Below are positions 16,138 through 55,500 of a DNA stretch of 64,000 nucleotides, piece after piece; the stretch's first letter is position 1, and every line of letters starts with the position of its first letter. The DNA lies in the NCBI GenBank assembly GCA_963737655.1, contig CAVTTN010000002.1:5088001-5152000 (forward strand), written 5' to 3'. Made by a program: the position numbers and the translations under genes. The stretch comes from an uncultured Planctomycetota bacterium. GTDB taxonomy: Bacteria; Planctomycetota; Planctomycetia; Isosphaerales; Isosphaeraceae. The notes under the pieces are model-generated. The model searched no databases. It was not told the DNA's origin and was given only the letters and a program-made list of their open reading frames with translations.

Positions 16138-17121
16138 ATGCCCCGCACCCCCGGACGCCCCGGGCCCGCCGGTCGAAGGCGGGCCGAGCCGCGATGCGAT
16201 CCCCTGGAACCGCGCCACCTGCTCTCCGCCCGGTTCGGCCATGCCCCGATCGTCCACGCCCAGGCCGCTTCGGCCCAGGGCGGGCGGATCGTCCGCGACG
16301 TGGTCTATCAGGACGCCCCGGACCCGGTCGAGCGGCTCGACCTGATCGAGCCGGCCGGGACGCCGCCCCCGGGCGGCTGGCCCGTGGTCGTCGCCATCCA
16401 CGGCGGAGGCTGGCGACGGTTCGACAAGACCGAATATGAGCCGACCGTCGCGCCTCTCGCCCGGGACGGCTATCTCGTCGTGGCGCCGAACTACCCGCTT
16501 TCGGGGCCGGGCTCGCCCTCGTGGCCGGCGAACTTCGAGGCCGTCCGGGACGCCGTGAGATGGGTCCGCGACCACACCTCGGCGATCGGCGCCGACCCGA
16601 ATCGGATCGCGACGATGGGCGAATCGGCCGGGGGGCACCTCGCGGCCCTGCTCGGGACCTATCCCGACGGCCCGGTGAATCCCGAATCGCCGGCGACCGC
16701 GACCGGCTCGGCCGATCCGGGCACCTCGGCCCGGGTCCAGGCGGTCGTGGACTTCTTCGGCCCGACGGACCTCGCCGCCCTTTCCCGAACCAGCCGGCTC
16801 GCGGCGGGGCCGATCCGCCACATGCTCGGCGCCGATCCCTCGAGCGACCCGGGCCGGGCCGCCGCCGCCTCGCCCGTCTCGTTCGTCTCGCCCGACGACC
16901 CGCCGACGCTGATCTTCCAGGGGACGGCCGACCCCATCGTCACCCCGTCGCAATCCACCGAGTTCGCCGACGCCCTGACGGCCGCCGGGGTGCCGAACCG
17001 GCTGATCCGCATCCCGGGAGCCGGCCACGGATTCGGCCTCTCGGCCGGGGGGCGGGACCTCCTCGGGACCATCGAGCGGTTCCTCGCCTCGGCCATGCCG
17101 GCGAAGTCGGGCGGGTCGTGA
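16138..17121 (+). CDS. Alpha/beta hydrolase (HSL/BD-FAE-like esterase) with LEPR-XLL-type leader
   Basis: HGGGW, GESAGGHLA, GTADPIV, GAGHG; N-terminal RRRAEPRCDPLEPRHLLS. Confidence 0.85.
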   Translation: MPRTPGRPGPAGRRRAEPRCDPLEPRHLLSARFGHAPIVHAQAASAQGGRIVRDVVYQDAPDPVERLDLIEPAGTPPPGGWPVVVAIHGGGWRRFDKTEYEPTVAPLARDGYLVVAPNYPLSGPGSPSWPANFEAVRDAVRWVRDHTSAIGADPNRIATMGESAGGHLAALLGTYPDGPVNPESPATATGSADPGTSARVQAVVDFFGPTDLAALSRTSRLAAGPIRHMLGADPSSDPGRAAAASPVSFVSPDDPPTLIFQGTADPIVTPSQSTEFADALTAAGVPNRLIRIPGAGHGFGLSAGGRDLLGTIERFLASAMPAKSGGS

Positions 17122-37378: not shown

Positions 37379-39448
37379 ATGGCGGAAGAAACCATCGATC
37401 CGGGCCTTCTCGAACAGACGAAGAACCAGATCCGCAAGCTGGTGGCCGAGATCGCCGAGCTCGCCGAGTCGGACATCCAGCCGGCGGAGTTCCACGTCGA
37501 GTTCCTCAACCGCGTGGTCGCCGCCGTGGCGGCGTCCGGCGGGGCCCTCTGGCTGCTCGACGGCCGGGGGACGCTCAAGCTCCAGCACCAGCTGGAGTTC
37601 CGCCAAACCGGCCTGCTCGACAACCGCCAGCGGGCCCAGCCCCACGACGCCCTGCTCGGCGTGATGCTCCAGGCCAGCCAGCCCCAGATCATCCCGCCCG
37701 GGGCGGCCGTCGAGGGGATGCCCAACGCCGGCAACCCCACGGCGTTCAGCCTGATCCTGTCCCCCCTGATGGTGGACAAGCAGGTCGTCGGCCTGGTCGA
37801 GATCCTGATGGACCCGACCCGCCGGGCCGCCACCCAGAAATCGACCTTGCGGTTCGTCAGCGACCTCTGCGACCTGGCCGCGCAGTACCTCAAGAACCGC
37901 CAGATGCGGCAGATGATGTCGCAGCAGAAGCTGTGGAACCAGCTCGAAGGCTTCACCCACTCGATCCACCACTCGCTGGACCTCCGCGAGACCGCCTACG
38001 CCGTGGCCAACGACGGCAAGAAGCTCGTCGGCTGCGACCGGCTCTCCGTGGCGCTGAAGATCGGCGGCCGGATGATCGTCGAGGCCGTCTCGGGCCAGGA
38101 GATCGTCGAGCAGAAGGCCAACCTGATCCGCGAGCTGACCCGGCTGTGCAAGGTCGTGGCCCAGTCGGGCGAGGACCTCGTCTACACCGGGACGACCGAG
38201 GGCTTCCCCCCCGAAATCCGGGACGCCCTGGAGGTTTACGTCGATGAGTCCGGCTCCAAGGCGGTGATCGTCACGATCCTGCACAAGCCCGAGACCGACC
38301 CGAACAAGGATAAAGACGTGTTCGGGTGCATCGTGGCCGAGCAGATCGGCGACGAGATGGCCCCGACCGACGCCCAGGCCCGCACCGAGGTCATCGCCAA
38401 GCACGCCTCGACGGCCCTCTGGAACGCCCGGGAGACCGACCGGGTCTTCGGGCTCAGCATCCTGAAGGCGATCGGCTCGCCGTGGAGGTTCTTCCGCGGT
38501 CGGACCCTGGCGAAGATCGCCGCGGTGCTCGGCCTGATCCTCCTGGTCATCGGGATCATGGCGTTCGTCCCCTGGCCGCTGACGATCGAGGGCAAGGGGT
38601 CGCTCTTGCCCGAGGACCGGCGGATCACGTATGCCCCCCTCCAGGGCAAGGTCATCGCCGTCCCGTTCGACCACGGGGACTTCGTGAAGCAGGGCGACGT
38701 CATCGCCCGGCTGGAGAACAAGCAGCTCGAGACCGAGCTGTACAAGCTCAAGGGCGACCTGATGGACGCCCGGAGCAAGCTGTCGAACGTCAACACCATG
38801 CTCCGAAAGAACACCAAGCCCGACGAGAGGCCCCAACTTGAAGGCGAGAGGGCCCAGGCCGAGGTGAAGATCCAGAGCACCCAGGCGCAGATCGAGACGA
38901 TCGAAGAGCAGCAGAGGATGCTGGAGATCAAGGCGCCGGTCTCGGGGATCATCACGACCTGGGAGACGAAGAAGAACCTCCTGAATCGGCCGGTGGAGGT
39001 CGGGCAGGAGCTGCTGTCGGTCGCCGCCCTGGATGGCGAATGGGTCCTGGAAGTGGACGTCCCCGACGACGACATGGCGCCGATCCTCGCGGCCCGGGCG
39101 AAGCTGGAAGGCGAGATCAAGAGCAAGGAAGCCCCGCCCGACGCCAAGCTGCCGGCCTACTTCGTCACGATGACCAACCCCGAGCACCGCTACGAGGGGT
39201 ACGTCCGGCGGGTCGCCTCGAAGGCCGAGACCGTCGAGGGCAAGCACGTCGTCAAGGTGACCGTCGGGTTCAACGAGGACGTGAAGCAGGACTACCTGAA
39301 GCGGAACAACATCAAGACGCTCAGGCCCGGGGCCGAGGTCCGGGCGCGGGTCAAGTGCGGCGAGGCGAAGCTCGCCTACGTGATGCTCCGCGACGTGATC
39401 CAGGTCTGGTACGAGACGGTCCTGTTCCGCTGGCCGTTCCTGAGGTGA
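37379..39448 (+). CDS. GAF-like domains + TM + HlyD/membrane-fusion (biotinyl-lipoyl, coiled coil) protein
   Basis: N-terminal GAF-like regions (SPLMVDKQVVGLVEIL; GCDRLSVAL), TM, YAPLQGKVIAV..DHGDFVKQGDVIARL, IKAPVSGII, LRPGAEVRARV. Confidence 0.8.
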   Translation: MAEETIDPGLLEQTKNQIRKLVAEIAELAESDIQPAEFHVEFLNRVVAAVAASGGALWLLDGRGTLKLQHQLEFRQTGLLDNRQRAQPHDALLGVMLQASQPQIIPPGAAVEGMPNAGNPTAFSLILSPLMVDKQVVGLVEILMDPTRRAATQKSTLRFVSDLCDLAAQYLKNRQMRQMMSQQKLWNQLEGFTHSIHHSLDLRETAYAVANDGKKLVGCDRLSVALKIGGRMIVEAVSGQEIVEQKANLIRELTRLCKVVAQSGEDLVYTGTTEGFPPEIRDALEVYVDESGSKAVIVTILHKPETDPNKDKDVFGCIVAEQIGDEMAPTDAQARTEVIAKHASTALWNARETDRVFGLSILKAIGSPWRFFRGRTLAKIAAVLGLILLVIGIMAFVPWPLTIEGKGSLLPEDRRITYAPLQGKVIAVPFDHGDFVKQGDVIARLENKQLETELYKLKGDLMDARSKLSNVNTMLRKNTKPDERPQLEGERAQAEVKIQSTQAQIETIEEQQRMLEIKAPVSGIITTWETKKNLLNRPVEVGQELLSVAALDGEWVLEVDVPDDDMAPILAARAKLEGEIKSKEAPPDAKLPAYFVTMTNPEHRYEGYVRRVASKAETVEGKHVVKVTVGFNEDVKQDYLKRNNIKTLRPGAEVRARVKCGEAKLAYVMLRDVIQVWYETVLFRWPFLR

Positions 39449-39520
39449 GGTCAGGTCAGGTCAGGTCGGGCCGGCTCGGCTCGGTGAAAGTTCGGTGGGC
39501 GGGCCTGGCCCGCCGCGGTC

Positions 39521-39542
39521 TGGTGCATTCCATGCACCCTAC
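39521..39542 (-). repeat. Single REP, family B
   Basis: TGGTGCATTCCATGCACCCTAC. Confidence 0.75.
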
Positions 39543-39570
39543 AGGTGACCCGCTCCCCGGAGAGACTCAT

Positions 39571-40539
39571 ATGCGACTTTCCAAGAAGCTGATGGCCGTG
39601 GCCGCCGGCGCCCTGGCGATGATCTCGGCGGCGTCCTGGGCGCAGGACTCGCCGACGAAGAGCGAGGAGACGATCGCCGTCTCCGGCAGCCTGGAATGGC
39701 TGGAGAAGTCCGACGTGTCGGCCCTGAAGGAGGGCGTGATCCGCCAGATCGAATTCCAGGTCGGCAAGCGAGTGGCCAAGGACAAGGAGATCGGCTCGCT
39801 CCGGGACGAGATGGCCAAGCTCACCCTGGCCAAGGCCGCGCTCGTGGCCAAGAACACCGGGGAGATCTCCAAGGCCAATGCCCAGAGGATGCTGGCGATG
39901 TCCGAGCTCGCCCGGCTCCAGAGGCTGGAGCTGAAGGGGCCGGGGTTCGTCTCGCAGTCGGAGAAGGAGAAGGCCCAGGCCGAGCTCGCCGTGGCCGACG
40001 CCCTCCGCCAGGTCGCCATGGAGACCCAGAAGGTCAACGAGGCCGACCGCGACCTCGCCCAGCAGGCCGTGGACGACCACGTCATCCGCGCCCCGTTCGA
40101 GGGCGTGATCACCGACCGGATGAAGTTCCCCGGCGAGTCCGTCCGGGCCAACGAGCCGGTCGTCCGGATCGGCCGGACCGACCGCCTCCGCTTCCTCGGG
40201 ATGCTGCCGATCGAGGTCGCCAACCGCCTGAAGGGCAACGAGGTCATCGACCTCCGCCCGACGATCGAGGGGGCCGACCTGCCGATCGAGGGCAAGGTCT
40301 TCCGGGGCCGGATCACCGCCCTGTCTCGCGAGATCACCAGCGTCCGCTCCACCGACGTGCAGATCCTCGCCGAGATCGAGAACTGGCCGATCGACGTGCC
40401 CAAGCCCTCGGCCGCCGAGAAGGAAGCCGGAGCGGCGCTGGACCCGCAGCTCGAGCTGCTCGTCGGGATGAAGGCCGACGCCACGATCTACCTCGGAGGC
40501 GCCGCCCCGAAGGTCGCCGCGAACAAGAAGACGCGCTGA
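39571..40539 (+). CDS. Periplasmic adaptor (RND/HlyD-type MFP) with signal peptide
   Basis: MRLSKKLMAVAAGALAMISAASWAQ; VSALKEGVI..I..QVG; IRAPFEGVI; LLVGMKADATI. Confidence 0.85.
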   Translation: MRLSKKLMAVAAGALAMISAASWAQDSPTKSEETIAVSGSLEWLEKSDVSALKEGVIRQIEFQVGKRVAKDKEIGSLRDEMAKLTLAKAALVAKNTGEISKANAQRMLAMSELARLQRLELKGPGFVSQSEKEKAQAELAVADALRQVAMETQKVNEADRDLAQQAVDDHVIRAPFEGVITDRMKFPGESVRANEPVVRIGRTDRLRFLGMLPIEVANRLKGNEVIDLRPTIEGADLPIEGKVFRGRITALSREITSVRSTDVQILAEIENWPIDVPKPSAAEKEAGAALDPQLELLVGMKADATIYLGGAAPKVAANKKTR

Positions 40540-40630
40540 TCCGAACTTCCAGAGCTCAACCGGGGGACGGCAGCCGCCCGCCTCCCCCGGCCTCGCCCGA
40601 TCTCTCCCCTTCTCGAAGGGCCGACGACCG

Positions 40631-42833
40631 ATGAGTGCCGCCCCCACGCTGGCTCCCGCCCTGCCCGCCGGCCAGTCCGCCGAGCAGCTCCAGGTCAAGC
40701 TCCGGCCCGACCTGATCGTCCAGCCCCAGTTCTACGAGGGGATGACCCACTACGTCGTCAAGGACCCGATCGCGCTGAAGTATTTCCGATTCAAGATCGA
40801 GGAATATTTCCTCCTCCAGCAGTTCGACGGCAAGAATACGCTCCAGGACGTCAAGCGCGCCTTCGAGCGCAAGTACCGGCCGCAGACGATCACCGTCGAC
40901 GACCTGATCCGCTTCGCCTCGCAGCTCCACGAGGCCGGGATCGCCCAGATCGACACCCCCGAGCAGGCCAAGGTCCTCATCGAGCGCCGGCGGAAGAACA
41001 AGTGGAAGCGGGTCTGGCAGTTCTTCGCCAACATCCTCTACATCAAGATCCCGATCATCGACCCCGAGAAGCTGCTGACCGGGATGTACCCCTACTTCCG
41101 GTGGCTCTTCACGCCCTATTTCGTCACGGCGAGCTGCGGGCTGATGCTCGCGGCGCTCACGCTCGTGGTCAGCCGGTTCGACGAGTTCTATTCCAAGCTC
41201 CCGGAGTTCCAGAGCTTCTTCAACTGGTACACGATTGTTTATTTTTGGTGCAGTTTGGCGGTCGTCAAGGTCATCCACGAGTTCGGCCACGGCCTCACGG
41301 CGAAGCATTTCGGCGGCGAGGTCCACGAGATGGGGATGCTGTTCCTCGTCCTCACGCCGGCGCTGTATTGCGACGTCACTGATAGCTGGCTCCTGCCGAA
41401 CAAGTGGAAACGGATCTGGATCTCGGCGGCGGGCATCTACGTCGAATGCTTCCTGGCGTCGCTCGCCACGTTCGTCTGGTTCAACACCCAGCCGGGCCTG
41501 CTGAATAGCCTGATGCTGGCGACGATGTTCATCTGCTCGGTCAACACGATCCTCTTCAACGCCAACCCGCTGCTCCGATACGACGGCTACTACGTGATGG
41601 CGGACTGGCTGGAGATCCCCAACCTGCGGATCAAGTCCACCCAGTTCTTCGTCTACCTGTTCCAGGAGAAGGTGCTGGGGCTGGAAGTGCCGGTGCAGAA
41701 CTACATGCCCCGGTCCCGGCGGTTCCTGTTCGTCACCTACGCGATCGCCAGCTATCTGTATCGCTGGGTGGTCACGTTCAGCATCCTGTTCTTCCTCAAC
41801 TCGTTCCTGAAGCCGTACAAGCTGACGTCGATCAGCCGGATGCTGGCGCTGGGGTCGCTCATCCCCCTGATCGCCATGCCGCTCTACCAGATGGGGAAGT
41901 TCGTGAACCAGCCCGGGAGGATGCGTAAAGTGAAGAAGGCCCGCACTGCCGGGTTCTTCGCGGTGGCCGCCGCGATCATCGCCGGTGTCATGCTGATCCC
42001 CACTCCCTTGCGAGTCCAGGGGACCCTGGTCCTGACGGTGGCCCAGCCCGCGATGGTCTATCCCGAGGTCGAGGGCCAGTTGGTGAGGATCCACGTCCGG
42101 GACGGCGACCCGGTGGCCGAGGGGCAGCTCCTGGCCGAGATGATCAACCCGCCGAAGCAACGCGAGCGGCTCCAGCTGACCGAGCAGCAGTCGGTGAACT
42201 TCGCCAAGTATGAGATGTACAACCGCTCGCTCGTGGTGACCGACCACGACCTGGCCAACCAGTTCCGCGCCGACGCCGAGGCGATGGAGCCGGCCATCGA
42301 GAAAGTCAACGAGCAGATCGCCAAGCTCAAGCTCTACGCCCCCAAGGCGGGCATCGCGCTGGGCGTCCCCCATCCCGAGACCACCGGCACCTGGCTGAAG
42401 CCCGGCGGCAAGCCGTTCTGCGAGATCGGCGACACGAGGAAGCTGGAAGCCCACCTGATCCTCGACCAGAGCGACGTGGACCTCGTCCGGCTCGACCGGG
42501 ACGAGGGCTCCTCGCGCCTGGGTGAAGATCTATGGCGACTCCGAGCACACGCGGAAGACCTACGTCCAGGCCATCGCCCGGAAGAACCGCGAGGAGATCC
42601 CCCCCGAGCTCTCCAACCAGGCCGGAGGCGAGATCGCCACCAAGCCCGACCAGAAGAACCAGGGCGTGGTCAAGCCGCTGAACTCGGTGTACGAGGTGAT
42701 CATCCCCGTCTCCAATGACGACCTCAAGCTCCAGCCCGGAATCCGAGGCTTCGCCAAGATCGACGGCGGCCACTGCACCCTGGGATGGTGGATGTGGAGG
42801 CTCGTGAGCAAGACGTTCCACTTCACGATCTAA
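40631..42833 (+). CDS. PqqD/RRE-like + M50 (site-2) zinc metallopeptidase + HlyD/MFP fusion; frameshift ~42508
   Basis: N-terminal YVVKDP..YFRF...FDGKNTL; VIHEFGH and NANPLLRYDGYY; multiple TMs; VRDGDPVAEGQLL; C-terminal LQPGIRGFAKI in ORF 42522..42833. Confidence 0.85.
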
Positions 42834-42838
42834 AACCC

Positions 42839-42937
42839 GTAGGGTGCATGAAATGCACCATCGTCCCCGTAGGGTGCATGAAATGCACCATCTTCGGTCG
42901 TCGCGAGATCGAAGATGGTGCATTTCATGCACCCTAC
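42839..42937. repeat. REP cluster, family B (2 direct + 1 inverted)
   Basis: GTAGGGTGCATGAAATGCACC at 42839 and 42869; inverted copy at 42917-42937. Confidence 0.85.
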
Positions 42938-42984
42938 GGGTGAGGAAATAAGTCCGCCTGCACGGACGCATTGGCGGACACATG

Positions 42985-43023
42985 GGGCGGGCCCGAGCTT
43001 CTCGGGCCCGCCCTTTTTCTTTT
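42985..43023 (+). terminator. Rho-independent terminator of the MFP/M50 operon
   Basis: GGGCGGGCCCGAG-CTT-CTCGGGCCCGCCC followed by TTTTTCTTTT. Confidence 0.75.
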
Positions 43024-43224
43024 CGTTCCTACGAGGCCGGGGCGTGTCATTGTTACAACACGACGGGTTCGCTTCCCGGCTTCGGACGTGTCCTCGAGGA
43101 TCGAAGTCGTGCAGGCGATGGGGTTTGGTGCGGGCCGGATTGACCCCGGCGCGGGTCGGGCATGGGGATTGCTTCGCCATTTCGGACCCGAGAGGCTTCG
43201 CGGCGGTTGGGAAAGGATTCCCCG

Positions 43225-44509
43225 ATGGCTCATGTGCTCGACCTGATCTATCTCGGCCTGCTCCTGGCCTTCGGGCCGATGCTGGCCTATCGCTCGTGGA
43301 AGGCCGGCAAATATCGCGACGGATGGTCGGAGAAGGTCCTGGGCAAGGCGCCCCGGCGGATCGGCGACCGGCCGTGCGTCTGGTTCCATGCCGTGAGCGT
43401 GGGGGAAGTCCTCCTGCTCCGCCCCCTGGTCGCGGAGCTCGCCCGGAGGAGGCCGGGCTGGGAGGTCGTCGTCTCGACGACCACGACGACCGGCCTGGCC
43501 GTCGCCCGGAGGACGTTCCCGGACCTCGTCACCTTCTATGCCCCCCTGGACTTCAGTTGGGCCGCCCGTCGCGCCGTGGCGAGGGTCCGGCCGACCGTCC
43601 TGGCCCTGGTCGAGCTGGAGTTGTGGCCCAACCTGATCGCCTCGGCCAAGGCGGCCGGCGCGGGTGGCGATCGTCAACGGCCGCCTGAGCGACCGGAGCC
43701 ACAGAGGGTATCGCAAGATCCGCTGGGCCCTGGGCCCGACGTTCTGGAGGCTCGATTCGGTCGCCGCGCAGACCGAGGAATACGCCGAGAGGTTCGTCGA
43801 TCTGGGCGTGCCGTCGCCCCACGTCCGCGTGACGGGCTCGGTGAAGTACGACGGCCTGGAGGCCGACCGGGGGAACCCTCGGACGGTGGCCCTCCGGCGA
43901 GAGCTCGGGCTGTCGGCGGCCGACGTGATCTTCGTGGCCGGGAGCACGATGGAGGGGGAAGAGGCCGCGGCCCTGGACGCCTTCCGCAAGGCCCGCGTCG
44001 ATCACCCCAGGCTCCGCCTCGTGCTGGTCCCCCGCCACGCCGAGCGGTTCGACCGGGTGGCGGCCTGGTTGCAGGAGGCGGGGGCGAGGGTCGTCCGAAG
44101 GAGCCGTCCGGGGCTGGTCCTGGGTCACGGCGACTACCCTCCGGTCTTCCTGATCGACACCCTGGGCGAGCTCTCGGCGGTCTGGGGCCTGGCGGACGTC
44201 GCGTTCGTCGGCGGCAGCCTGTTCCCGGGCCGGGGCGGCCAGAACATGATGGAGCCGGCGGCCTTCGGGGCGTCGGTGCTGTTCGGGCCGTCCACGGGGA
44301 ATTTCAAGGAGGCCGTCGAGGGCCTGCTCGCCCGCGACGGCGCGAAGCGCGTGGAGAACGCCGAGGCCCTGGCCCGGGCCCTGATGGCCGACCTGGACGA
44401 CCCCGAGGCGGCGGCGGCCCGCGGGGCGGCCGGCCGGGCGTTCGTCCTGGCCCAGAACGGCGCGTCGCTGAGGACGCTGGCCGAGCTCGATCGCCTGGTC
44501 GGCGACTGA
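43225..44509 (+). CDS. waaA: 3-deoxy-D-manno-octulosonic acid (Kdo) transferase; frameshift ~43662
   Basis: WFHAVSVGE, YAPLD, ELELWPN, NGRLS, VTGSVKYD, LVPRHAERF, DTLGEL, FVGGSL, GGQNMMEPA. Confidence 0.92.
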
Positions 44510-44726
44510 TCGGGACCGGGCAAGATCCCCCATCTTCGCCGGGCTCTCGGGACGGCCCGAGATGGCCCCGATTCGGCCGATTTTGCGGGTCGGTCCCCGG
44601 TTGCACGACCGATGGGGTTTCGTCAGACTGTCACGACTCGCGAGGCCCTCGGAGGCCCCGCGCGGCGACACAAGGCCGCCGACCCTTCCGTTCCGTTCCG
44701 ATCCGAGTTTTCTGCCGGAGACAGCC

Positions 44727-45098
44727 ATGAGCGAGACCGAAGGCGTTCAACAGCCCCAGGGCCAGCAGACCGAAGTCCACGTGGACGACTCCTCGACGCT
44801 GCCGTCGTACTCGAACTTCTGCCGGGTCACGGCCACGCCCGAGGAAGTGATCCTCGACTTCGGCCTGAATCCCCAGCCGTTCGCCACCGGCCGGCAGGAC
44901 GTGAAAGCCAATCAGCGGATCGTCATGAATTTCTATACCGCGAAGCGACTGCTGACGGCCCTGGGGATGACGATCCAGAGGCACGAGGGCACGTTCGGCT
45001 CGATCGAGCTGGACGTTCGCCGCCGGGCCGGGACGTTCCAGCAGACCCAGACGCGGCACCCCTCCGGCTCGGTCGGCCCCCAGGGGATCGTCGAGTAA
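44727..45098 (+). CDS. DUF3467 domain protein
   Basis: YSNFCRVTATPEEVILDFG...RIVMNFYTAKRLL.AL...IQRHE..FG; RBS GGAG. Confidence 0.85.
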   Translation: MSETEGVQQPQGQQTEVHVDDSSTLPSYSNFCRVTATPEEVILDFGLNPQPFATGRQDVKANQRIVMNFYTAKRLLTALGMTIQRHEGTFGSIELDVRRRAGTFQQTQTRHPSGSVGPQGIVE

Positions 45099-45130
45099 GC
45101 GTCGGATCGACGGCGGCATGACGGATGAGA

Positions 45131-45172
45131 TCGGGCGGGCCCTCCCTCGGTGGGGGCCCGCCCGATTTTTTT
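45131..45172 (+). terminator. Rho-independent terminator after DUF3467
   Basis: TCGGGCGGGCCC...GGGCCCGCCCGA followed by TTTTTTT. Confidence 0.75.
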
Positions 45173-45424
45173 GCGCATCTCGCCCAGAGTCCGCCGGACT
45201 CGCCGATCGTGCGGGCTTTCCGGGTCCAAATGGTTGATCTCCGGGGTGGAGATCGGCCGATCCTGAGTGTCAAGACGAGTGGTCCGCGAAGCCCGGACGC
45301 GCCGCGAAGGCCGATCGGGCCCGGTCTTCGACTCATTCGACCTTCGCGGACGTGTCGATACCGTAGGGTGCCGGGAGCCCGGCCTCGATTCAGGACGGAC
45401 GAGTCCCGCCCAAGGAGATAAGGA

Positions 45425-48400
45425 ATGTCTCACTCTTCCCGGCCGGACCCGCGCGGAGACGCGAATCGGCCCCGTCGTCGCGTCCGGATCGAGAACCTGG
45501 TCACGCTGGAGGATCGGATGTTGCCGGCCCCGGTCGTGGCCTCCACGATCCCCCAGGCCAACTTCACGGCCGCCGCGGCGCCGTCGAACGACAACCTCGG
45601 CACGGTCTCGATCTCGGCGGTCGCCAATTCGGCCAGCGCCGCGGCGCTGACCTCGGTGGCCCAGCTCACCTCGGCCAACTCCTTCGGCGGCGACATCGTC
45701 CGCATCAAGGCCGGGCCCGGGGGCGACTTCGGCAAGGGCGTCTACGCCATCAGCCGGGGCGCCGGCGAGAACGCCGACGCGACCTCGCGAGACCCGAGCA
45801 TCCAGGCCCCGATCAACCGGCCCGGCGTGATCTACCGCGTCGATCCGGCCACGGGCAAGACCTCGGTCTTCTTCGACCTGAACACCGTGATCAACCAGCT
45901 GCAGACCGGAGGGGACGCCTCCAACGGCTCCTCGCCCGGCTCCGGCCTGCTGAACTGGTACGATATCGCCTTCGACCCCGAGGGGTATTTCGACGGCAAA
46001 CCGTCGATGTTCGTCAGCTCGCTGTCGCAGAGCGACCCGACCAAGAACGTGATCTACCGGATCGGGCCGGACGGCTCGTTCATGGGCCTGTATATCCAGT
46101 TCACGGCCGGGGCGACCGAGCAGAACTTCACCCGCCAACCCAGCGCCCTGTTGATCCCCCCGCCGGAGCAGCAGAGCTTCCTCAAGGGCCTGTTCGTCGG
46201 CCAGGGCACGGGGCTCACCCAGAATAACGGAACGGCCGCCGGCGGGTTCGCGGCCCTGTTCTTCGACGCCAACCAGTTCTCGCCCGGGGCGAACCTCAAC
46301 GGCGACACCCTGCCCAACGGCGTGACGGCCACCCCGCTGACCTACGGTCCGCAGGTCGGCCTGACCTCGGCCAACTCGTCGTACACCTCGCCGGTGTATT
46401 CGGCGTTCAGCGACTTCGGCACCCCCGGGGCCGGCGGGGTCGCCGCGACCTTCGGCCTGAGCGGCGTCCAGGGCCTCCAGGGCGAGATCCCGATCGGAGG
46501 GGCCGGGACGATCATCCCCGACTTCACCACGGCGCCGGCCATCGCCGGGACCACCGACGGCGACGCCGCCGTGATCACCCCGTTCCGACGGTTCCAGGAC
46601 ATCGCCTTCGACCAGTACGGCTACTTCTCCTACGGGACCAACGGCAACACGCTCACCGCCGGGGCCGCGCCGACCTACGAGGGGAGCCTGTTCGTCTCCG
46701 ACCTGGCCACCGGGCTGACCGTCCCGGTCAACACGGCCGCCGCGCTGGGCGGGATCGCCGCCGGGACCGCCGTGAACATCCCGATCCAGGGCGCCGGCGG
46801 CCCGATCGGCGTGACCCTGAGCCCCAACGGCACCGTCGTCCCGATCTTCACCAACGGCAACACCACCAACGGCACCAACCTCGGCGGCCGGATCTTGCGG
46901 GTCAGCCCCACGGGCGTGGTCTCGGTCTTCGCCGACAATTTCCACACCAACGGCGCCCAGGACGCCTCCAGCTTCGTCTCCAGCGAGCTGAGCATCTCGT
47001 TCTCGGCCGACGGCACGACCCTCTACGCGGCCGACGACGACGGGATCTGGCAGTTCAAGACCGTCACCGACCTCGCCGGCGCGACCTCCGGCTCGCTGAT
47101 CGGCCTGAACGACCTGAGGACCCTGGGCGTCCCCTACGACGGCCAGGATTCGGCCGTGGCGATCGTCGATACCGGCGTCGATTCGCTGACCCCGAACTTC
47201 CGGGGCCGGGTGGCCACGGGCCTGAGCGTCGTGACCAACGGGCCGGGCAACGACGACACGGCCGCCGCCGTCAACGGCCACGGGACGCTCGTCGCCGGCG
47301 TGGTCGCCCAGTTCGTCCCCCAGGCCACGTTGGACCCGGTCAACGTCTTCACCCCCAACCAGGTCGCGCCCGGCAACTCGGCCGGGGCCGCCTCGGTGAC
47401 CGGCGCCACCACGCCCCAGAACGTCTACACCGGGCTGGATTACGTCGCCAACAACCCGTTCGTCCGCGACCCGATCCGCCCGAACACCCAGGACCGCGTG
47501 ATCGCCGCCAACGTCGGCTTCGGCACGACCACGACCTATGGGACGGAGACCCAGGCCTACAACCGGTTCCCGCAGATCACCCTGGCCTTCGAGAACGAGT
47601 TCGCCAAGTTCCGGCGGATCGGGATCCAGGGGATCGCCGCGGCCGGCCAGTTCGGCACCCCTCAGGGCGCGACGGTCACCGGCGGATCGGTCACCGGCGG
47701 GGACGTCCAGGGGATCGCCTTCCCGGCCGTCCTGGACACGGTGATCTCGGTCACCGGGAGCTATTCCTACCCGTTCACCGCCCTGCCCACGTCCAGCCCG
47801 GTCGATCCCGGGACCGGCGTGATCCCCCGGCCTCCCGGGCCGGCCCTGCTCTACGGCAGCCCGGCGGGCAACACGATCACCGGGGCCGGATCGGCCGCCA
47901 CGGTCGCCTCGGCCGATGCCATCGTCTTCAAGGACAAGCTCCTGGCCTCGTCCAACCGCAGCCTGACGACCGACTACACCGCCCCCGAGCTCGACCTGCC
48001 CACCTTCCGCCGGACCGCCGCGTCGACCATCGGGGCCACCACCACGGCCGTCGGCGCCCCGCCGGACTTCAACGACTTCTCCGAGGGCGGGACCTCGCTG
48101 TCCTCGGCCGTCGTCACCGGCTCCTATGCGATGGTCGCCTCGGCCCTGGACTACTGGCAGACCATCTCCAACAACAACGGCCTGACCGTCGATGGCTACC
48201 TGACCACCCCGGCCGGCGTCAACCAGTTGAACTTCGGCAAGGGAGGGATCGAGAACCTCTCGGCCTACTCCAACCCCGACGGCATCAACTCGATCCTCCA
48301 GTGGACGGCCGTCCCGGCGAGCGACTCGCTCAACACGGTCGATCCGGTGACCCCGCCGACCCTGTTCCAGAGCCCCAACTACCGCGAGTTCGCCCGGATC

Positions 48401-49714
48401 GACATCGGCAACGCCATCGCCGCCATCGAAGGCTCGATCGCGCTGAACTACCTGTTCGCCCACGGCACCTTCGACATCATCGACGCCAACAAGAACGGCC
48501 TGGTCACGGCCCAGGAGCTCCAGAACTTCGCCGACAACGCCGCCAACATCGGCATGCCCGAGGCCGGGGTGATGGCCCGCTTCCTGGGCGGGACCGCGCG
48601 AATCCCCACCACCGGCTTCCAGCAGACCGGCGCCGGCGAGTCGCCCGATCAGCCCGACGTCCTCCAGCGCCGCTTCAACTTCTTCGACTACGCGGCCGAC
48701 GGCCAGCTCAACGGGGCGATCTCGATCGCCCAGTACCAGGCCCTGGCCAAGAACCTGCTGCCCACGCCCGACGCCTTCACCGTCACCGACCGCCAGAGGG
48801 CCTCGGTCGATGGCTTCCTGCTCTCGCCCAACCCGCTGAGGAACTACTCGGACCTCCAGCACACCCTGCCGACCTACGCCTTCATCCCCAAGAGGGTCGT
48901 GGCCCGGTTCAAGAACATCTCCCCGGCGAAGTTCGGGATCAAGGGGAGGACCCAGGGGCCGGTCTTCACCCTGTTCAGCCAGGGAGGCGCCCAGTCCACC
49001 ACGGGCAAGACCCCGGTCAAGGGGAACACCACGACCAAGCCCGCGGGCTCGACCACGACCACCACCACCAAGCCCGCGGGCTCGACCACGACGACGACCA
49101 CGACCAAGCCCGCGGGCTCGACCACGACCGGGACCACCACGACCACCGGTTCCTCGACCGCCACGCCCCCCTCGGCGACGGGGACGACCGGCTCGGGCCA
49201 GGCCGCCACGGCCTCGGGGGTCAACTACATCGCGTCCTTGCTGAACAAGGCCCCGGCGGCCAGCCCCGTGACGGTCAACTCGGCCGCGACGAGCTCGACC
49301 GCCACGCCCTCTCCGGTGACGACCAACGGCGCGACCACCGGGGCCCCGGCCGCCGAGAGCGCCTCGGGCGTGGGGACCTCGCTGACCTCGGCCTCGCTCG
49401 CGGCGATCTCGACCCCGGCGAAGGCCGGGACGCCCGCCGCGACCACCGCGTCGTCCTCGACCGAGAACGTCCAGGTCGCCATGTCTCGACAAACCGCCGC
49501 CAAGCTCGCGAGGAACGAGGCCGAGGGCAAGTCCCAGGTCGCCCCAAGCGGCTCGCACGTCGCGCCGGTCGGCTCGGGCAACGGCACCGGAACCGCAACC
49601 GGATCGTCCGCCCCGGCCGCCGCCGCCCACTCGACCAAGAAGAAGTCCAAGACCTCCACCAAGTTCGACCCGTTGAACCCGTGGAAGTCGATCACCAACA
49701 TCTTCAAGAAGTAG
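45425..49714 (+). CDS. Large extracellular S8 subtilase-like protein with LEPR-XLL-type leader
   Basis: RRRVRIENLVTLEDRMLPA leader; VAIVDTGVD, HGTLVAG, GGTSLS triad; EF-hand-like DANKNGLVTAQEL; Thr/Ser-rich tail; RBS AAGGA. Confidence 0.85.
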   Translation: MSHSSRPDPRGDANRPRRRVRIENLVTLEDRMLPAPVVASTIPQANFTAAAAPSNDNLGTVSISAVANSASAAALTSVAQLTSANSFGGDIVRIKAGPGGDFGKGVYAISRGAGENADATSRDPSIQAPINRPGVIYRVDPATGKTSVFFDLNTVINQLQTGGDASNGSSPGSGLLNWYDIAFDPEGYFDGKPSMFVSSLSQSDPTKNVIYRIGPDGSFMGLYIQFTAGATEQNFTRQPSALLIPPPEQQSFLKGLFVGQGTGLTQNNGTAAGGFAALFFDANQFSPGANLNGDTLPNGVTATPLTYGPQVGLTSANSSYTSPVYSAFSDFGTPGAGGVAATFGLSGVQGLQGEIPIGGAGTIIPDFTTAPAIAGTTDGDAAVITPFRRFQDIAFDQYGYFSYGTNGNTLTAGAAPTYEGSLFVSDLATGLTVPVNTAAALGGIAAGTAVNIPIQGAGGPIGVTLSPNGTVVPIFTNGNTTNGTNLGGRILRVSPTGVVSVFADNFHTNGAQDASSFVSSELSISFSADGTTLYAADDDGIWQFKTVTDLAGATSGSLIGLNDLRTLGVPYDGQDSAVAIVDTGVDSLTPNFRGRVATGLSVVTNGPGNDDTAAAVNGHGTLVAGVVAQFVPQATLDPVNVFTPNQVAPGNSAGAASVTGATTPQNVYTGLDYVANNPFVRDPIRPNTQDRVIAANVGFGTTTTYGTETQAYNRFPQITLAFENEFAKFRRIGIQGIAAAGQFGTPQGATVTGGSVTGGDVQGIAFPAVLDTVISVTGSYSYPFTALPTSSPVDPGTGVIPRPPGPALLYGSPAGNTITGAGSAATVASADAIVFKDKLLASSNRSLTTDYTAPELDLPTFRRTAASTIGATTTAVGAPPDFNDFSEGGTSLSSAVVTGSYAMVASALDYWQTISNNNGLTVDGYLTTPAGVNQLNFGKGGIENLSAYSNPDGINSILQWTAVPASDSLNTVDPVTPPTLFQSPNYREFARIDIGNAIAAIEGSIALNYLFAHGTFDIIDANKNGLVTAQELQNFADNAANIGMPEAGVMARFLGGTARIPTTGFQQTGAGESPDQPDVLQRRFNFFDYAADGQLNGAISIAQYQALAKNLLPTPDAFTVTDRQRASVDGFLLSPNPLRNYSDLQHTLPTYAFIPKRVVARFKNISPAKFGIKGRTQGPVFTLFSQGGAQSTTGKTPVKGNTTTKPAGSTTTTTTKPAGSTTTTTTTKPAGSTTTGTTTTTGSSTATPPSATGTTGSGQAATASGVNYIASLLNKAPAASPVTVNSAATSSTATPSPVTTNGATTGAPAAESASGVGTSLTSASLAAISTPAKAGTPAATTASSSTENVQVAMSRQTAAKLARNEAEGKSQVAPSGSHVAPVGSGNGTGTATGSSAPAAAAHSTKKKSKTSTKFDPLNPWKSITNIFKK
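49029..49135 (+). repeat. Coding tandem repeat (TTKPAGSTTTT)x3
   Basis: CCAAGCCCGCGGGCTCGACCACGAC repeated three times in frame. Confidence 0.8.
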
Positions 49715-49968: not shown

Positions 49969-52667
49969 TCAGTCCATCGCCTGGGCGAAGACTCCGACGG
50001 CCAGGGCGACTCCCTCCGGGGCGTCGAGCGCCTCGGTCAGGTCGATTTCCCGGCCTCCGTCGCGGCCCTTCATGAGCGTTTCGATCAGGGCGATGGTGGT
50101 GTCGATCACGTCGGGCTGGATCAGGATCAGGTCGCCGGGGCGGGCCTCGCGGACCACCGCGTCCACGGCCTTCAGAGCGCCCTGGAACTCGCGGACCTCG
50201 CCCACCCTTGAGCCCGATTCCAGGCCCTTGCGGAACAGGCTCATGATCTCGCCCGGCTGGCGGCCCCGGACGTACTGGTCCTCGTACAGGACCACGCGAT
50301 CGAAGGCGTCGCCCAGCATCTCCCCCTGGCGGACGAGGTCCTCGTCCCGGCGGTCCCCGGCGGCCGAGTAGACCACCGTCCGCCGTTCCTGGGGGAACGG
50401 CTCGATCGCGTCGATCAACGCCTGGAGGGCCGAGACGTTGTGGCCGTAGTCCAGGATGATCGTCGCCCCGTTCATCTCCAGGAGGTTGAACCGGCCCGGG
50501 ACCGAACCCATCGCGCCCGGAAGCTCTCCAGGCCCGTGCGGATCGCATCCATTGAGAGCCCCAGCGACCACGCCGCCGCCGCGCTCGACAGGGCGTTCTC
50601 GATCTGGAACGACACCCGCCCGCCGTGGGTCAGAGGGACGTCGGCCAGGGCGATCAGGGAGGTCTCGCGGGGCCCTTCGGCCAGGACGATCCACTCGTCC
50701 CTCACGAACGCGGCCCGGCCCCCCTCGGAGCGGTGGGCGGCGATCACCGGCAGGTCGCCGTCCTGGGCGAAGAAGACCACGGAGCCGGGGCAATGCTCGG
50801 CCATCGCCGCCACGAGCGGGTCGTCCGCCTTCAGGACCGCCGAACCCTTCGGGCCGACCGCCTCGACGATCGTCCGCTTGACCTGCGAGAGCTTGTCCAG
50901 GGTGTGGATGTCGTGGAGGCCCAGGTGGTCCCCCTCGCCGATGTTCGTCACGACGGCCACGTCGCAGCGATCGAACGCCAGGCCGGCGCGGAGGATGCCG
51001 CCCCGGGCGGTTTCCAGGACGGCCGCCTCGACCCGGGGATGCATCAGGACCGCCGAGGCGCTGCCGGGGCCGGAGCAATCGCCCGACTCGATCCGGCGCT
51101 CGTTGATGTAGATCCCCTCGGTGCACGTCATCCCGACGGTCCGCCCCGTCCCCCGGACGATGCTGGCGATGAACCGCGTGACGGTCGTCTTGCCGTTGGT
51201 GCCGGTCACGGCGACCAGGGGGACCCGGCCGTTCTGGCCGTCGGGGAACATGAGGTCGATGATCGCCTCGCCGACCGGCCGAGGGCTGCCGGAGGAGGGC
51301 TCCAGGTGCATCCGCAGGCCCGGCCCGGCGTTGACCTCGACGATCACGCCGGCCTGGTCTTCCAGGGGGACGGCGATGTCCCGGGCCACGACGTCGATCC
51401 CGGCCACGTCCAGGCCGACCATCCGGGCCGCCTCGATGCACCGGGCGGCGACCTCCGGATGGACGCGGTCGGTCACGTCCTCGGCCGTCCCTCCGGTGCT
51501 CAGGTTCGCGTTGCGGCGGATCGGGACCTTGCGGCCCTCGGCGGGGACCGATTGCGGGTTGAGGCCCTGATCGGCGAGGACGGCCAGGGCGATGTCGTCG
51601 AGCTTGATCTTGCTCAGGGAGGTGGCGTGGCCGTCGCCTCGGCGGGGGTCGGTGTTCTTGATCGCGACGAGTTCGGCGACCGTCGATCGGCCGTCGCCGA
51701 CGACGTGGGCCGGCTCCCTCCGGGCGGCGGCGACCACGCGGTCGCCGACGACCAGGACGCGGTAATCGTCGCCCGGGGCGAACGTCTCGACGATCACCGA
51801 GCCGTCGGAGCTCTCGGCATGGGCGGCGTCATGGGCGGCGCGGACCTGGGCCTCGGTCGTCAGGTCGGTGGCGACCCCTCGGCCCTGGTTGCCGTATCGG
51901 GGCTTGACCACCACGGCCACGCCCAGCTCCCGGGCGGCGGCCCAGGCGTCGTCGGCCGAGGCGACGGGCCGGCCGGCGGGCACCGGCACGCCGATCGGGG
52001 CCAGGAGCGACCGGGTCAATTCCTTGTCCTGGGCGATCTCCTGGGCGATCGCGCCGGTGCGGTCGGTCTCGGCGGTCAGGATCCGCCGTTGCCGGGCCCC
52101 CCAGCCGAGCTGGACGAGGCTGCCGGTGTTGAGCCTTCGGGTCGGGATGCCTCGGTCCTTGGCGGCCTTGACGATCGACCCGGTGCTCGGTCCGAGCCGG
52201 GCCTCGTGGAGGATGTCGCGGATCCGGGCGACCTCGGCCGCCACGTCGAACGGTCGGTCGTGGAGGGCGGCCAGGACGAGCTCTCGGCCGACCTTCAGGG
52301 CCTCCCGGGCGGAGGTCTCCTCCTCGTACTCGACGACGACCTTGTACACGCCCTCCTCGCTCGTCTCGCGGGCCCGGCCGTAGCCGACGTCCGAGCCGGC
52401 CAGGGCCAGGAGCTCCAGGGTGACGTGCTCGAGGATGTGGGCCGGATAGGTCCCCCGGCGGAGCCTCTCGAAGAACCCTCCGCGCGTGCCGACGCTGCAC
52501 CGGTGCTCGACCATCGTCGGCAGCCAGGCCATCAGGCGGTCATTGAAGCCGGGGGCCTCGTCGGACGATGTGTCCTTCAAGGGGCCGAGGTCCACCCAGG
52601 CTTCGAGGACGGGGAAATTCGCCCAGAGGTTCGGTCCGCGCAGTGCCAGGACCTTCCGGAATTCCAT
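49969..52667 (-). CDS. cphA: Cyanophycin synthetase; frameshift ~50518
   Basis: LRGPNLWA, EHRCSVGTRGGFFERLRRGTY..HILEHV, LGPSTGSIV, ATP-grasp (EVNAGPGLRMH), Mur ligase VTGTNGKTT, ETARGG, DYGHN. Confidence 0.95.
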
Positions 52668-53097
52668 GGATCGTTCGCTCCGGGAGGGGGAGCGGCCCAG
52701 GACGCGGCCCGGGGGTCCACCCCGACCGGGCGACGACGACACCGGGGGCACCCGCCCCGTCCGTCCTGGGCCGAACCACCTCCGCAATGACCAGGCTCGC
52801 GACAGTGACGGCGGACGAGAGGGGGGGCCGAGCCGCCGAGACGAGCACCTCGCACGGGTCTAGTACGAAGGATCGCCGTCGGGGATCGAACTCACCTGCC
52901 CGATTTCTTCGGAGAAAGTCGCCGTTTGGGCGCTCTCGGTCGCACGTCCGGGAGTCCGCCCTTGCCTTGGCCCCGGAGGCGCGGCACGCCCTCGCGCCCG
53001 GGAGGCCCTCTTATCTTGTCGGACCGATGACAAAAGGCAAGAGGGACCCGGCCCGATCCAGCGGTTTCCTCCGGAGGGGCCGTCCGGGAGATTCCGG

Positions 53098-53189
53098 GGG
53101 GTAGAGCTCTGGAATCTGGAACTTCTGGGGTGCCCCCGGTTCTCGAACCGGGGGCACCCGAAAAAACTCCAGATTCGGGAGCTACACCC
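53098..53189. repeat. Long imperfect palindrome in the cphA/ABC divergent region
   Basis: Perfect core GGGTGCCCCCGGTTC-TC-GAACCGGGGGCACCC with extended arms GAATCTGGA/TCCAGATTC and GGGTAGAGCTC/GAGCTACACCC. Confidence 0.75.
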
Positions 53190-53281
53190 GATTCCGGGCG
53201 ATTCTCTCTAGGCAGCGCCGGGGCCTCGCCTATGATGGAAAGTCCAGGGCTCGGGCGGACCTTCCGGGGAGAGCGACGGCG

Positions 53282-55499
53282 TTGAGCGATCGGCCTTCGG
53301 GCTCAGACGATGCGATCGGGGGCCTCGGCCCGGAGGCCCGCGGCGAGGTGGCGGGCCTCCTGGGGCCGGACGAGCGCGTCCGCGGGGCGTTCCAACCCGA
53401 TCTGGACCCCGGACTCGTGTATCGCGACGGGCTGGTCGTCCTGACCGACCGCCGCCTCCTCGGCCGGGGCCATTCGGCGGACGCCGGGCCGTCCGGGCCC
53501 TCGGCCCGGCCTCCTGGCCGCTGAATCCCTCGCTCCGGCTCGCGATCCACGAGCATCAGGGCCTGGGGACGCTCGACCTCTCCGGCCCCGACGGCCTCCT
53601 GGCCCGGTGGCGGTTCACCGCAGCTCGGGCGAAGGCGGCGAGGAAGGTCGTCGAGGACTTCCCGGCCGCCGTCGCCGGCCTGCCCGTCGCCGAGGCCGAG
53701 CCCGCCCTGGCCGAAACGGCCGACGAACCGCCCCCCGCCTCGGGACGGACCGCCTCCTCGCTCGTCCGCCTCCTCAAATTCGCCCGGGGCCGCTCCGGGG
53801 CGATCGCTCTGGGCTTTTTCCTGACGCTCACCAGCACGGCCGCCGGCCTGATCCCGCCTTATTTAACCGAGCCGCTGATCGATGACGTGCTCGTCCCCCG
53901 CCAGGCCGGGCAATCGGTGCCGACGGCCCTGATTTCCTGGTACATCGGCGGGATGGCGCTCGCGTCGGTCCTGGCGTGGATCCTGGGATGGGCGAGATCG
54001 TATGTGATGGCCTGGGTCGGCGAGCGGATCAGCGCCGATTTGCGGGACCGGACGTATTCGCACCTCCTTCGCCTGTCGATGGAGTTTTTCGGCGGCAAGA
54101 GGACCGGCGACCTGATGAGCCGGATCAGCTCGGACACCGATCGGATCTGCAACTTCCTGTCGGTCAACCTCGTCGATTTCGCCACCGACATCCTCATGAT
54201 CGCCGGGACGGCGGCGATCCTGGTCGTCAAGGCGCCCTGCTCGCCCTGGCCACGCTCTGCCCGTTGCCGATGGTCGGCTGGCTCGTCCACAAGGTCCGCC
54301 ACCGCCTGAGGAACGGGTTCCGGGCGAGCTCCCGGGCCTGGGCCGCGATGACCAGCGTCCTGGCCGACACGATCCCGGGCATCCGGGTCGTCAAGGCGTT
54401 CGCCCAGGAGGGCCGCGAGGAGGCCCGATTCGTCTCGGCCAACGCCCACAACGTGAAGGTCAACGACCGGGTCAACGCCATCTGGGCCTTCTTCGGGCCG
54501 ATGCTGGGGCTGTTGACCCAGATTGGCCTGCTGGTCGTGTGGGGGGTGGGCGCCTGGCTGGTGTTCCACCGGAACTTCAAGGTCGGCCTGCTGACCATGT
54601 TCCTGACCTACCTCGGCCGGTTCTACACGAGGTTGGAGTCCATGAGCCGGATGGTCCAGGCCACCCAGAGGGCCGCGGCCAGCGCCGGGAGGGTCTTCGA
54701 GATCCTCGACCGCGTGCCGAGCGTCCCCGACCCTCTGCGGCCCCGGGACGCCTCGATCATCCGGGGAGGACTGGAGCTCCGCGACGTGGGGTTCCGCTAC
54801 GGGACCCGGACGGTCCTCGAAGGGGTGAACCTGAACGTCCGCCCCGGGGAGATGATCGGCCTGGTCGGCCCGAGCGGGGCGGGCAAGAGCACCCTGGTGA
54901 ACCTGATCTGCCGGTTCTACGACGTCACGGCCGGCTCGATCCGGATCGACGGAGTGGACGTCCGCGAGTTCGCCGTGAGCGACTATCGCCGCCATATCGG
55001 GATCGTCTTGCAGGAGCCGTTCCTCTTCTTCGGGACGGTGGCCGAGAACATCGCCTACGGCCGCCCCGAGGCGACCCGGGAAGACATCGTGGGCGCCGCC
55101 CGGGCCGCCCGGGCCCACGAATTCATCCTCCGGCTGCCCGACGGCTACGACTCGATCGTCGGCGAGCGCGGCCAGTCGCTCTCGGGAGGGGAGCGGCAAC
55201 GCATCTCCATCGCGCGCGCCCTCCTGATCGACCCCAAGATCCTGATTTTGGACGAGGCCACCTCCAGCGTGGACACCGAGACCGAACGGGAGATCCAGGA
55301 GGCGCTGGACAACCTCGTCCGAGGGCGGACGACGATCGCCATCGCCCACCGGCTGAGCACGCTTAGAAAAGCCGATCGACTGGTGGTCATCGAACGCGGG
55401 AAGATCGCCGAGATCGGCCACCACGAGGAGCTCCTCCAGACGCCCGGGGCGTATGCGAGGCTCCACCGGGCCCAGATCGAGCTGGCGGGGGTGTCGTGA
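53282..55499 (+). CDS. ABC exporter (extra N-terminal domain + TMD + NBD), cyanophycin-associated type; frameshifts ~53500 and ~54235
   Basis: DLD..LVYRDGLVVLTDRRL N-terminal domain; RTGDLMSRISSDTDR; GPSGAGKST, LSGGERQR, ILDEATSSVD, IAHRLST. Confidence 0.88.
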
Positions 55500-55500
55500 C

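Follow-up and report, generated by a model that had tools for sequence, protein, structure and literature searches.

How do proteins that carry an LExLExRxLL leader leave the cell? Since 2004 this leader has been presumed to be an export signal, with no machine to go with it; since 2015 a locus encoding SecA, HlyD and M50 proteins has been the reverse case, a machine lacking a cargo. Both meet in a 64,000-nucleotide stretch of DNA (the window) from an uncultured Planctomycetota bacterium (assembly GCA_963737655.1, contig CAVTTN010000002.1, positions 5,088,001 to 5,152,000), whose genome, G000, comprises 7.63 Mb in 3 contigs and is 87.7% complete. The nearest relatives with names belong to the Isosphaeraceae. 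Three genes for membrane-fusion proteins (MFPs), one of them fused to an M50 protease, stand together here, and an earlier reading of the sequence (the original prediction) took them for a dedicated machine for leader proteins. Phylogenetic profiling, proteobacterial cassettes, a predicted complex, and a short SecA and a TolC found in the genome support that proposal, and we consider it likely that this triad spans the envelope as the core of a system dedicated to exporting LExLExRxLL-leader proteins.

The adaptor triad and its association with leader proteins

The triad comprises the following features:

37379..39448, + strand: GAF-MFP, 689 residues, with cytoplasmic tandem GAF domains, a transmembrane segment and an MFP domain (Pfam GAF at residues 201-347, GAF_3 at 43-172, HlyD_3 at 517-582)
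39571..40539, + strand: periplasmic MFP, 322 residues, with a Sec-type signal peptide (hydrophobic N terminus) and HlyD_3 and RND_mfp matches
40631..42833, + strand: M50-MFP, a fusion of an RRE (PqqD-like) domain, an M50 intramembrane metalloprotease (Peptidase_M50) and an MFP
42984..43024, + strand: intrinsic-terminator-like hairpin closing the triad (hairpin at 42984-43014, 14 pairs, 12 of them G-C, followed by a T tract)

The domain matches and the 14-pair hairpin confirm three different MFP genes with a terminator of their own, and Pfam and motif matches bear out the fusion of one MFP to GAF domains and of another to an M50 protease with intact HEFGH (residues 216-220) and NPLLRYDG (312-319) motifs. 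The zinc-ligand pattern of this protease family (HExxH, NxxPxxxxDG) is present, with H216, E217, H220 and D318 invariant in 37 of 37 diverse rows. The window holds 12 terminator-like sites, against 7.6 ± 2.7 in shuffles, and the hairpin at 42984-43014 is the longest by far. There is one triad in the genome, and the GAF-MFP gene is single copy (one tblastn match). The M50 gene is frameshifted near 42505-42515, its C terminus running on in another frame to 42833; because close M50-MFP relatives are mostly whole proteins of ~727 residues, the sequence comparison suggests that this frameshift is probably an assembly error. Frameshifts also affect kdtA, cphA and the housekeeping secA. Some M50-MFP frames elsewhere are longer, at 1,100-1,300 residues (L126 in G121, and G057, G165 and G053), suggesting extra fused domains.

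Profiling of the M50-MFP against leaders across genomes, a check proposed with the original prediction, revealed co-occurrence. In a single sample of 250 Planctomycetota genomes with completeness of 90% or more, the M50-MFP matched 73; two partial cases (G043 and G062) were dropped, leaving 71 positive and 179 negative genomes. The curated leader model NF012209 (E ≤ 0.05) matched 40 of the 71 positives against 5 of the 179 negatives, and outside the window's class the counts are 32/53 and 5/178. Four of the five matches in negatives were inspected and are wrong-frame noise; the fifth is a 60-residue frame with a stop. Within family f7, the M50-MFP and NF012209 occur in the same two of nine genomes. 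A second leader profile, A1, applied with its nine training genomes excluded, matched 22/62 positives and 0/179 negatives at E ≤ 1e-4, 34 against 6 at E ≤ 1e-3 and 49 against 42 at E ≤ 0.05. Five of the six A1 matches in negatives at 1e-3 were inspected, and four are noise and one is a true leader (G205). When ten leader-positive, M50-negative genomes were searched again by profile, nothing emerged beyond matches to MFP domains, a single PqqD standing alone and a weak, partial match to the M50 region, so the absence of the M50-MFP from these ten genomes stands. Most of the leader matches are wrong-frame noise. Taken with the neighbourhoods described below, a dedicated export link between the triad and the leader proteins is very probable.

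Three sets of loci show what accompanies the M50 gene: 80 related loci, in which genes within 10 kb were counted; 40 distant loci, hand-picked from M50-MFP matches and counted by eye over 20-kb neighbourhoods; and 8 plasmid cassettes, hand-picked from 76 plasmid records with an M50-MFP match, on which the proteobacterial evidence rests. The distant loci include a GAF-MFP in 30 cases, a SecA-like gene in 17, a leader protein in 11, DUF3467 in 10, TolC in 5, an ATP-binding cassette (ABC) gene in 2 and an RND gene in 1. The plasmid cassettes encode a leader protein in seven of eight and TolC in six of eight. Their first type (type A: Methylosinus, Mesorhizobium, Pseudosulfitobacter and Thalassospira) carries a leader giant of 4,000-12,900 residues, with DUF3467 and short SecA each in three of four and TolC in two of four. 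The second (type B: Escherichia coli, Burkholderia, Azospirillum and Magnetospirillum) combines TolC with the triad and has no ATPase; three of these encode a DUF4347 protein bearing the same leader core, and the fourth a 5'-truncated cargo gene. The type B cassette is present in 22 of 5,426 E. coli genomes. More widely, 9,587 representatives match the M50-MFP profile at E ≤ 1e-30, although some of these may be partial matches.

Several details of individual loci are recorded here. One operonic SecA-like gene (L129:11130-13106) is highly degenerate, scoring 167 bits in a leave-one-out comparison against 666-979 for the other 16, and the same locus has two DUF3467 genes. A SapC-family gene lies between the M50-MFP and short SecA genes of a cassette without DUF3467 (L089:22218-23039); sapC also adjoins the Chlorobium giants in the accessible text of a recent preprint (10.64898/2026.03.19.712371). 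Two of the type B cassettes have small 'tail fiber' genes in front of them (L091:5439-6053 and L092:4967-7816), and the second also has a GNAT gene.

These neighbourhoods bear on whether the three proteins are simply adaptors for an ordinary ABC or RND transporter encoded elsewhere, which would make the system a type I system with extra leader processing. We regard this as very unlikely. The genome does hold many ABC, RND and TolC genes, and at one locus (L104) an MFP and an RND pump directly follow the M50 gene on the same strand, whereas triads are not consistently paired with such pumps: ABC genes lie near the M50 gene in 2/80 close and 2/40 distant loci, RND genes in 4/80 and 1/40, and none of the eight plasmid operons contains either. 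The conserved ATPase partner is instead SecA-like (17/40 loci). The original prediction had stated that the window lacks an ABC ATPase, which is incorrect, as one is encoded at 53976-55499; it lies 11 kb from the triad, leaving the locus itself without an ABC transporter, and we rejected it as a partner on account of its cyanophycin-associated family. The other half of a type I system, an MFP with a TolC-family channel, is represented by the three MFPs and by a TolC that is unlinked here and operonic in G183 and G105.

Predicted leader recognition by the RRE-M50 fusion

Structure prediction of the leader with the N-terminal part of the M50 protein, also proposed at the outset, yielded a complex that passed its controls. 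We modelled M50-MFP residues 15-435 with a 30-residue canonical leader from elsewhere in the genome. The complex scored 0.66, against 0.02 for the best of three controls; 116 of 157 solved pairs and 2 of 215 mismatched ones pass the mark applied, which is only a rough guide when, as here, alignments of our own are used. Runs agree in at least 94% of contacts, and the partner has a predicted local distance difference test (pLDDT) score of at least 63. In the model, leader residues 12-17, just before the LE pair, add a strand to RRE strand 50-54 and pack against helix 91-102. The invariant leader arginine is predicted to lie beside T250 and adjacent to D248, a position that is D or N in 37/37 rows, and the downstream leader residues to enter the HEFGH/RYD site, with an interface that includes H216, E217, H220 and residues 316-318. 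The strand addition in the model agrees with the way in which RREs bind leaders. The model supports leader binding by the RRE-M50 fusion, which we judge quite likely; leader cleavage at the M50 site, toward which the modelled chain runs, is moderately probable.

Profile comparisons place the fusion near known leader-processing proteins. The M50-MFP matches the daptide RRE-protease model NF041824 with E 5e-51, below that model's cut-off, and it matches PqqD (3g2b, E 0.0034) and S2P (3b4r, E 0.0021) structures; the PqqD match and a second PqqD-like match (E 0.15) are both weak, and searching by sequence turned up no solved structure of an RRE-M50 fusion. According to the accessible text of its description, the daptide RRE-site-2 protease MpaP takes off a leader that has an ELExMEAP motif (10.1101/2023.03.08.531785), and the epipeptide protease EpeP is thought, in the part of the report available, to cleave and export its peptide (PMC10885120). 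As far as these sources go, MpaP and EpeP resemble the protein described here in joining an RRE to an M50 protease that acts, or here would act, on an acidic-hydrophobic leader. They act on short precursors of peptides made on ribosomes and modified after translation (RiPPs), whereas the present fusion also carries an MFP domain and has candidate cargo of up to thousands of residues.

Type I systems (HlyB-HlyD-TolC) share with the triad an MFP and TolC conduit, and in peptidase-containing ABC exporters a membrane-bound peptidase likewise reads an N-terminal leader. The system described here differs from both in having no ABC transporter, three MFPs, an M50 rather than a C39 peptidase, an RRE and a SecA-like ATPase. 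By membership it is not a type I system, and it probably represents a distinct leader-guided pathway built on an already described gene module.

Candidate motor and channel, and the proposed route across the envelope

The locus encodes neither a motor nor a channel of its own. A search of the genome for SecA paralogues and outer-membrane channels gave a candidate of each kind, both unlinked to the triad. G000 has two SecA_DEAD genes, one of which is short (682 residues, C2:4438427-4440475), ends near the start of the scaffold region and lies ~690 kb from the triad. An orphan TolC gene (C2:2787584-2789869) is the only G000 match of any of the eight cassette TolCs (E 2e-13, from L116), and the queries used detected no pump genes near it. 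Among the profiled genomes, short SecA, identified by where the match ends or by the length of the frame, occurs in 43/71 positives (29/56 without training genomes), against two ambiguous matches in 179 negatives. The TolC family is found in 18 of 19 genomes of the window's class, which are the 18 with the M50-MFP; a stricter first look found none outside the class. In G183 and G105 the TolC-family gene directly follows the M50 gene. The nineteenth genome, G003 (100% complete, 170 contigs), gave no match to the M50-MFP, DUF3467, the TolC family or short SecA and no true leader.

In 25 of the 80 related loci, the housekeeping secA is found no more than 10 kb from the M50 gene. We considered whether the SecA beside kdtA and DUF3467 in these relatives might be the short paralogue and rejected this, as it is the housekeeping protein of ~1,208 residues. 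In L019, L020 and L063, the housekeeping secA, kdtA, DUF3467 and the triad share one strand within ~12 kb, an arrangement that ties the system to genes of lipopolysaccharide synthesis and general secretion. With short SecA in type A operons, no ATPase in type B operons and linkage to the housekeeping secA in Isosphaeraceae, the motor appears to be exchangeable. That a SecA-type motor powers export is an option we favour slightly.

In the mechanism we propose, the RRE of the M50-MFP would bind the leader, which would then be threaded into the M50 site and cut off, possibly near the LL pair. A SecA-type ATPase would drive the chain, and the three adaptors would pass it to a TolC channel. A mixed adaptor oligomer may dock on the orphan TolC at C2:2787584-2789869, powered by the 682-residue SecA paralogue or, where the paralogue is missing, by the housekeeping SecA.

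The main rival is a two-step route, in which SecA or short SecA, together with SecYEG, would carry the proteins to the periplasm, the RRE-M50 fusion would act as their dedicated signal peptidase, and the adaptors and TolC would serve the outer-membrane step only. We consider this route unlikely. SecYEG signal peptides need a hydrophobic core, which the leaders do not have, and TolC/MFP conduits normally take their cargo from the inner-membrane side. The linkage of the housekeeping secA in 25/80 close relatives and the occurrence of cassettes without short SecA in E. coli (22/5,426 genomes) would nevertheless fit it, as does the report, in the accessible text of the Chlorobium preprint, of LEPRxLL giants in the periplasm (10.64898/2026.03.19.712371).

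On a different reading, the triad would be a module for sensing and regulated proteolysis: a GAF sensor paired with a site-2 protease would control leader proteins or break them down, and would not export them. Both GAF domains and site-2 proteases are typical components of signalling, and a regulatory role for the GAF protein is suggested in the accessible text of an earlier study (PMC4452313). Three MFP domains and an operonic TolC point instead to a conduit, and no further export signal is apparent in the leader proteins; we regard a purely regulatory role as highly improbable.

That earlier study, by Kamneva, Poudel and Ward in 2015, described a locus with a secondary SecA_DEAD protein and three HlyD-domain proteins, with or without OEP, and called its role unknown. 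In its accessible text, the locus has the same trio of M50-HlyD, HlyD and GAF-HlyD proteins and no ABC transporter; short SecA is proposed as the ATPase and M50 as the pore, and the parts are noted to be sometimes scattered (PMC4452313). The window's genome shares the defining features of this module, with the trio encoded together, a second SecA_DEAD protein without most of the wing and scaffold, and no ABC transporter in the locus. It differs in that short SecA and TolC are unlinked here and that the linked ATPase gene in relatives is the housekeeping secA. The terms 'leader', 'PqqD' and 'DUF3467' have no match in the main text of that paper. The Chlorobium preprint proposes a TolC/SapC/HlyD route for LEPRxLL giants and, in its accessible text, does not mention M50. 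Nor is a link between leader and machine made in the accessible text of 10.1101/2023.11.21.568195, PMC6584795, PMC13723633, PMC6963963 or PMC10952558, and we found no paper joining the two in open-licence PMC and bioRxiv. A Pectobacterium type I system for a multi-repeat adhesin is a possible experimental precedent and may bear on how new the link is; the accessible text on it does not list the domains of its components.

Several observations weigh against export by the triad as we propose it. NF012209 has no match in 31 of the 71 M50-MFP genomes, and 11 positives have no leader match at all at E ≤ 0.05; of four of these that were re-searched, G035, G222 and G090 hold real leaders (in frames of 3,962, 3,838 and 7,079 residues) and G193 yielded none. 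Profile A1 is noisy at loose thresholds, matching 42/179 negatives at E ≤ 0.05, and the true leader in M50-negative G205 lies in a genome with 6% contamination, on a 6-kb contig. Related genomes are not independent samples, so Fisher p-values overstate the case. Eleven leader-positive genomes have no short SecA match, short SecA was not seen in five of the eight plasmid cassettes, and the L104 arrangement and the reported periplasmic Chlorobium giants point the same way. The predicted complex may have passed owing to its likeness to solved RRE-leader structures, and it was built with a canonical leader, not the variant found in the window.

Whether the system forms a distinct secretion class is, in our estimate, evenly balanced. 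Such a class would combine leader reading of the RiPP kind and intramembrane cleavage by an RRE-M50-MFP fusion, an ABC-less SecA motor and a three-adaptor conduit to TolC, and it would serve as a general surface-protein pathway in Planctomycetia and as the route of giants in other phyla. Joining the leader to this machine would account for the exit of proteins as long as 12,000 residues, carry RRE leader reading beyond small peptides into the secretion of proteins, and supply a short, portable tag with which large proteins could be exported.

Candidate substrates and neighbouring genes

In the accessible text of PMC8567305, the leader is given as RRLxxExLExRxLLA and, citing Studholme 2004, is called a presumed novel export signal; 52 genes of Tuwongella encode it there, 20 of them detected by proteomics, and no export machinery is named. 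In G000, a profile trained on 66 leaders picked by regular expression gave 100 matches of at least 12 bits, against 0 in reversed open reading frames. The list has its limits, as frameshifts may shorten some proteins and a few low-scoring matches may be false. In the 99 proteins with a locatable core, a median of 504 residues follows the leader, and 17 exceed 1,000 residues; a hydrophobic stretch lies near the leader in 6/99 and a transmembrane-like segment in 3/99. The consensus has E or D at position -2 in 96/99 and is the same as that of the Planc_extracel (PF07595) and LEPR-8K (NF012209) families, whose core also recurs in the DUF4347 proteins of the proteobacterial cassettes. Because only one (PF07595) and three (NF012209) G000 proteins pass the curated cut-offs, these models are insensitive here. 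With about 100 leader proteins to one triad, the system would be a general secretion pathway in this lineage, not a cassette for one giant.

Downstream of the triad, and elsewhere in the window, the following features were assigned:

43225..44509, + strand: kdtA/waaA (Kdo transferase), frameshifted, with its PF04413 match divided between two frames; it separates the triad from DUF3467
44727..45098, + strand: DUF3467 protein, 123 residues (PF11950, E 6e-21)
45130..45172 (approximate), + strand: hairpin and T-run between the DUF3467 and 1,429-residue genes, read from the sequence; its inner stem is also among the terminator-like sites
45425..49714, + strand: S8 subtilase-family protein, 1,429 residues, with weak EF-hand matches (subtilisin matches to E 3e-6)
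45506..45529, + strand: leader core of the subtilase, residues 28-35 (L28 and E29 in 18/18, R31 in 16/18)
53976-55499, beside cphA: ABC ATPase, best matched by the cyanophycin-associated ABC family
16138..17121, + strand: second leader-bearing protein, 327 residues, unlinked to the triad (16.4 bits on the genome leader profile, C2:5104051-5105118)

The original prediction had placed DUF3467 and a LEPR-XLL giant without a hydrophobic signal downstream of the triad and in its orientation. Both genes are real, with kdtA and a second hairpin intervening. The giant, encoded by a single-copy gene, indeed has no hydrophobic signal (best 11-residue hydropathy 1.59, against 2.26 for the MFP signal peptide), and it proves to be a subtilase with a variant leader that the curated models missed. 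Its catalytic triad (D582, H619 and S891) is invariant in 18/18 sequences, made up of the window protein plus 17 orthologues that were selected for having long open frames. A basic N terminus and an LExRxL core within the first 60 residues are conserved in the orthologues. The leader lacks an acidic residue at -2 from LE; it has no PF07595 or NCBIfam match and none on the genome-trained profile, and scores 11.4 bits on A1. The orthologue in L056 scores 27.7 bits, but it is a training row of A1.

For a point picked at random in the genome, the chance that the start of a leader gene lies no more than 5 kb away is 11%, so among ~100 candidate substrates the adjacency of the subtilase is by itself weak evidence. 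Its homologues lie within 10 kb of the M50 gene in 30/80 related loci, and this linkage is the stronger evidence. In all 30 linked loci the homologue and the triad are encoded on opposite strands, which makes the co-orientation seen in the window a local rearrangement peculiar to this genome. The subtilase is a likely substrate of the system. What the window contributes beyond the described module is one machine alongside ~100 mostly ordinary-sized candidate substrates, together with linkage to the housekeeping secA, a TolC family that matches and a subtilase cargo that is conserved. The subtilase ends (49600-49714) in a helix that is basic and aromatic, looks amphipathic and recurs in many of the orthologues, and K/H-rich tails are common among the G000 leader proteins; together these tails are a possible surface-retention signal.

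DUF3467, of which the genome holds one copy, lies near the M50 gene in 31 of the 80 close loci. It occurs in 49/71 M50-positive and 14/179 M50-negative genomes and in 3/14 control genomes, and we rejected it as an exclusive component of the system on account of its presence in the negatives; a re-search of five DUF3467-positive, M50-negative genomes with one query gave no M50 match. The model of the protein has three strands and a long helix (pLDDT 80). Its fold matches are weak, the best being COMM and PUR/PC4 domains (Z 5.7, root-mean-square deviation 3.0, 59 aligned residues), below the reliable level; no solved relative was found by sequence, and the Atlas returned only DUF3467 clusters. 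Occurrence without the triad and weak fold matches leave the suggested chaperone function unsupported, and we class DUF3467 as an accessory protein. Family f2 genomes (for example G035, G072, G203 and G222) also encode tandem DUF3467 double-domain proteins, and family f29 has a low-scoring DUF3467 without a triad, which in G030 is divergent from a dnaJ-like gene.

kdtA lies near the M50 gene in 29 of the 80 close loci and is probably a conserved neighbour, not a component of the system. Beyond the subtilase gene, 49969-55974 is an ordinary cyanophycin cluster with a frameshifted cyanophycin synthetase gene, the associated ABC transporter and DUF1854. Short GC-rich inverted repeats with a common core lie between genes at 42836-42940 and ~39500-39545; they resemble repetitive extragenic palindromes, and their translation recurs in several open reading frame listings elsewhere in the genome.

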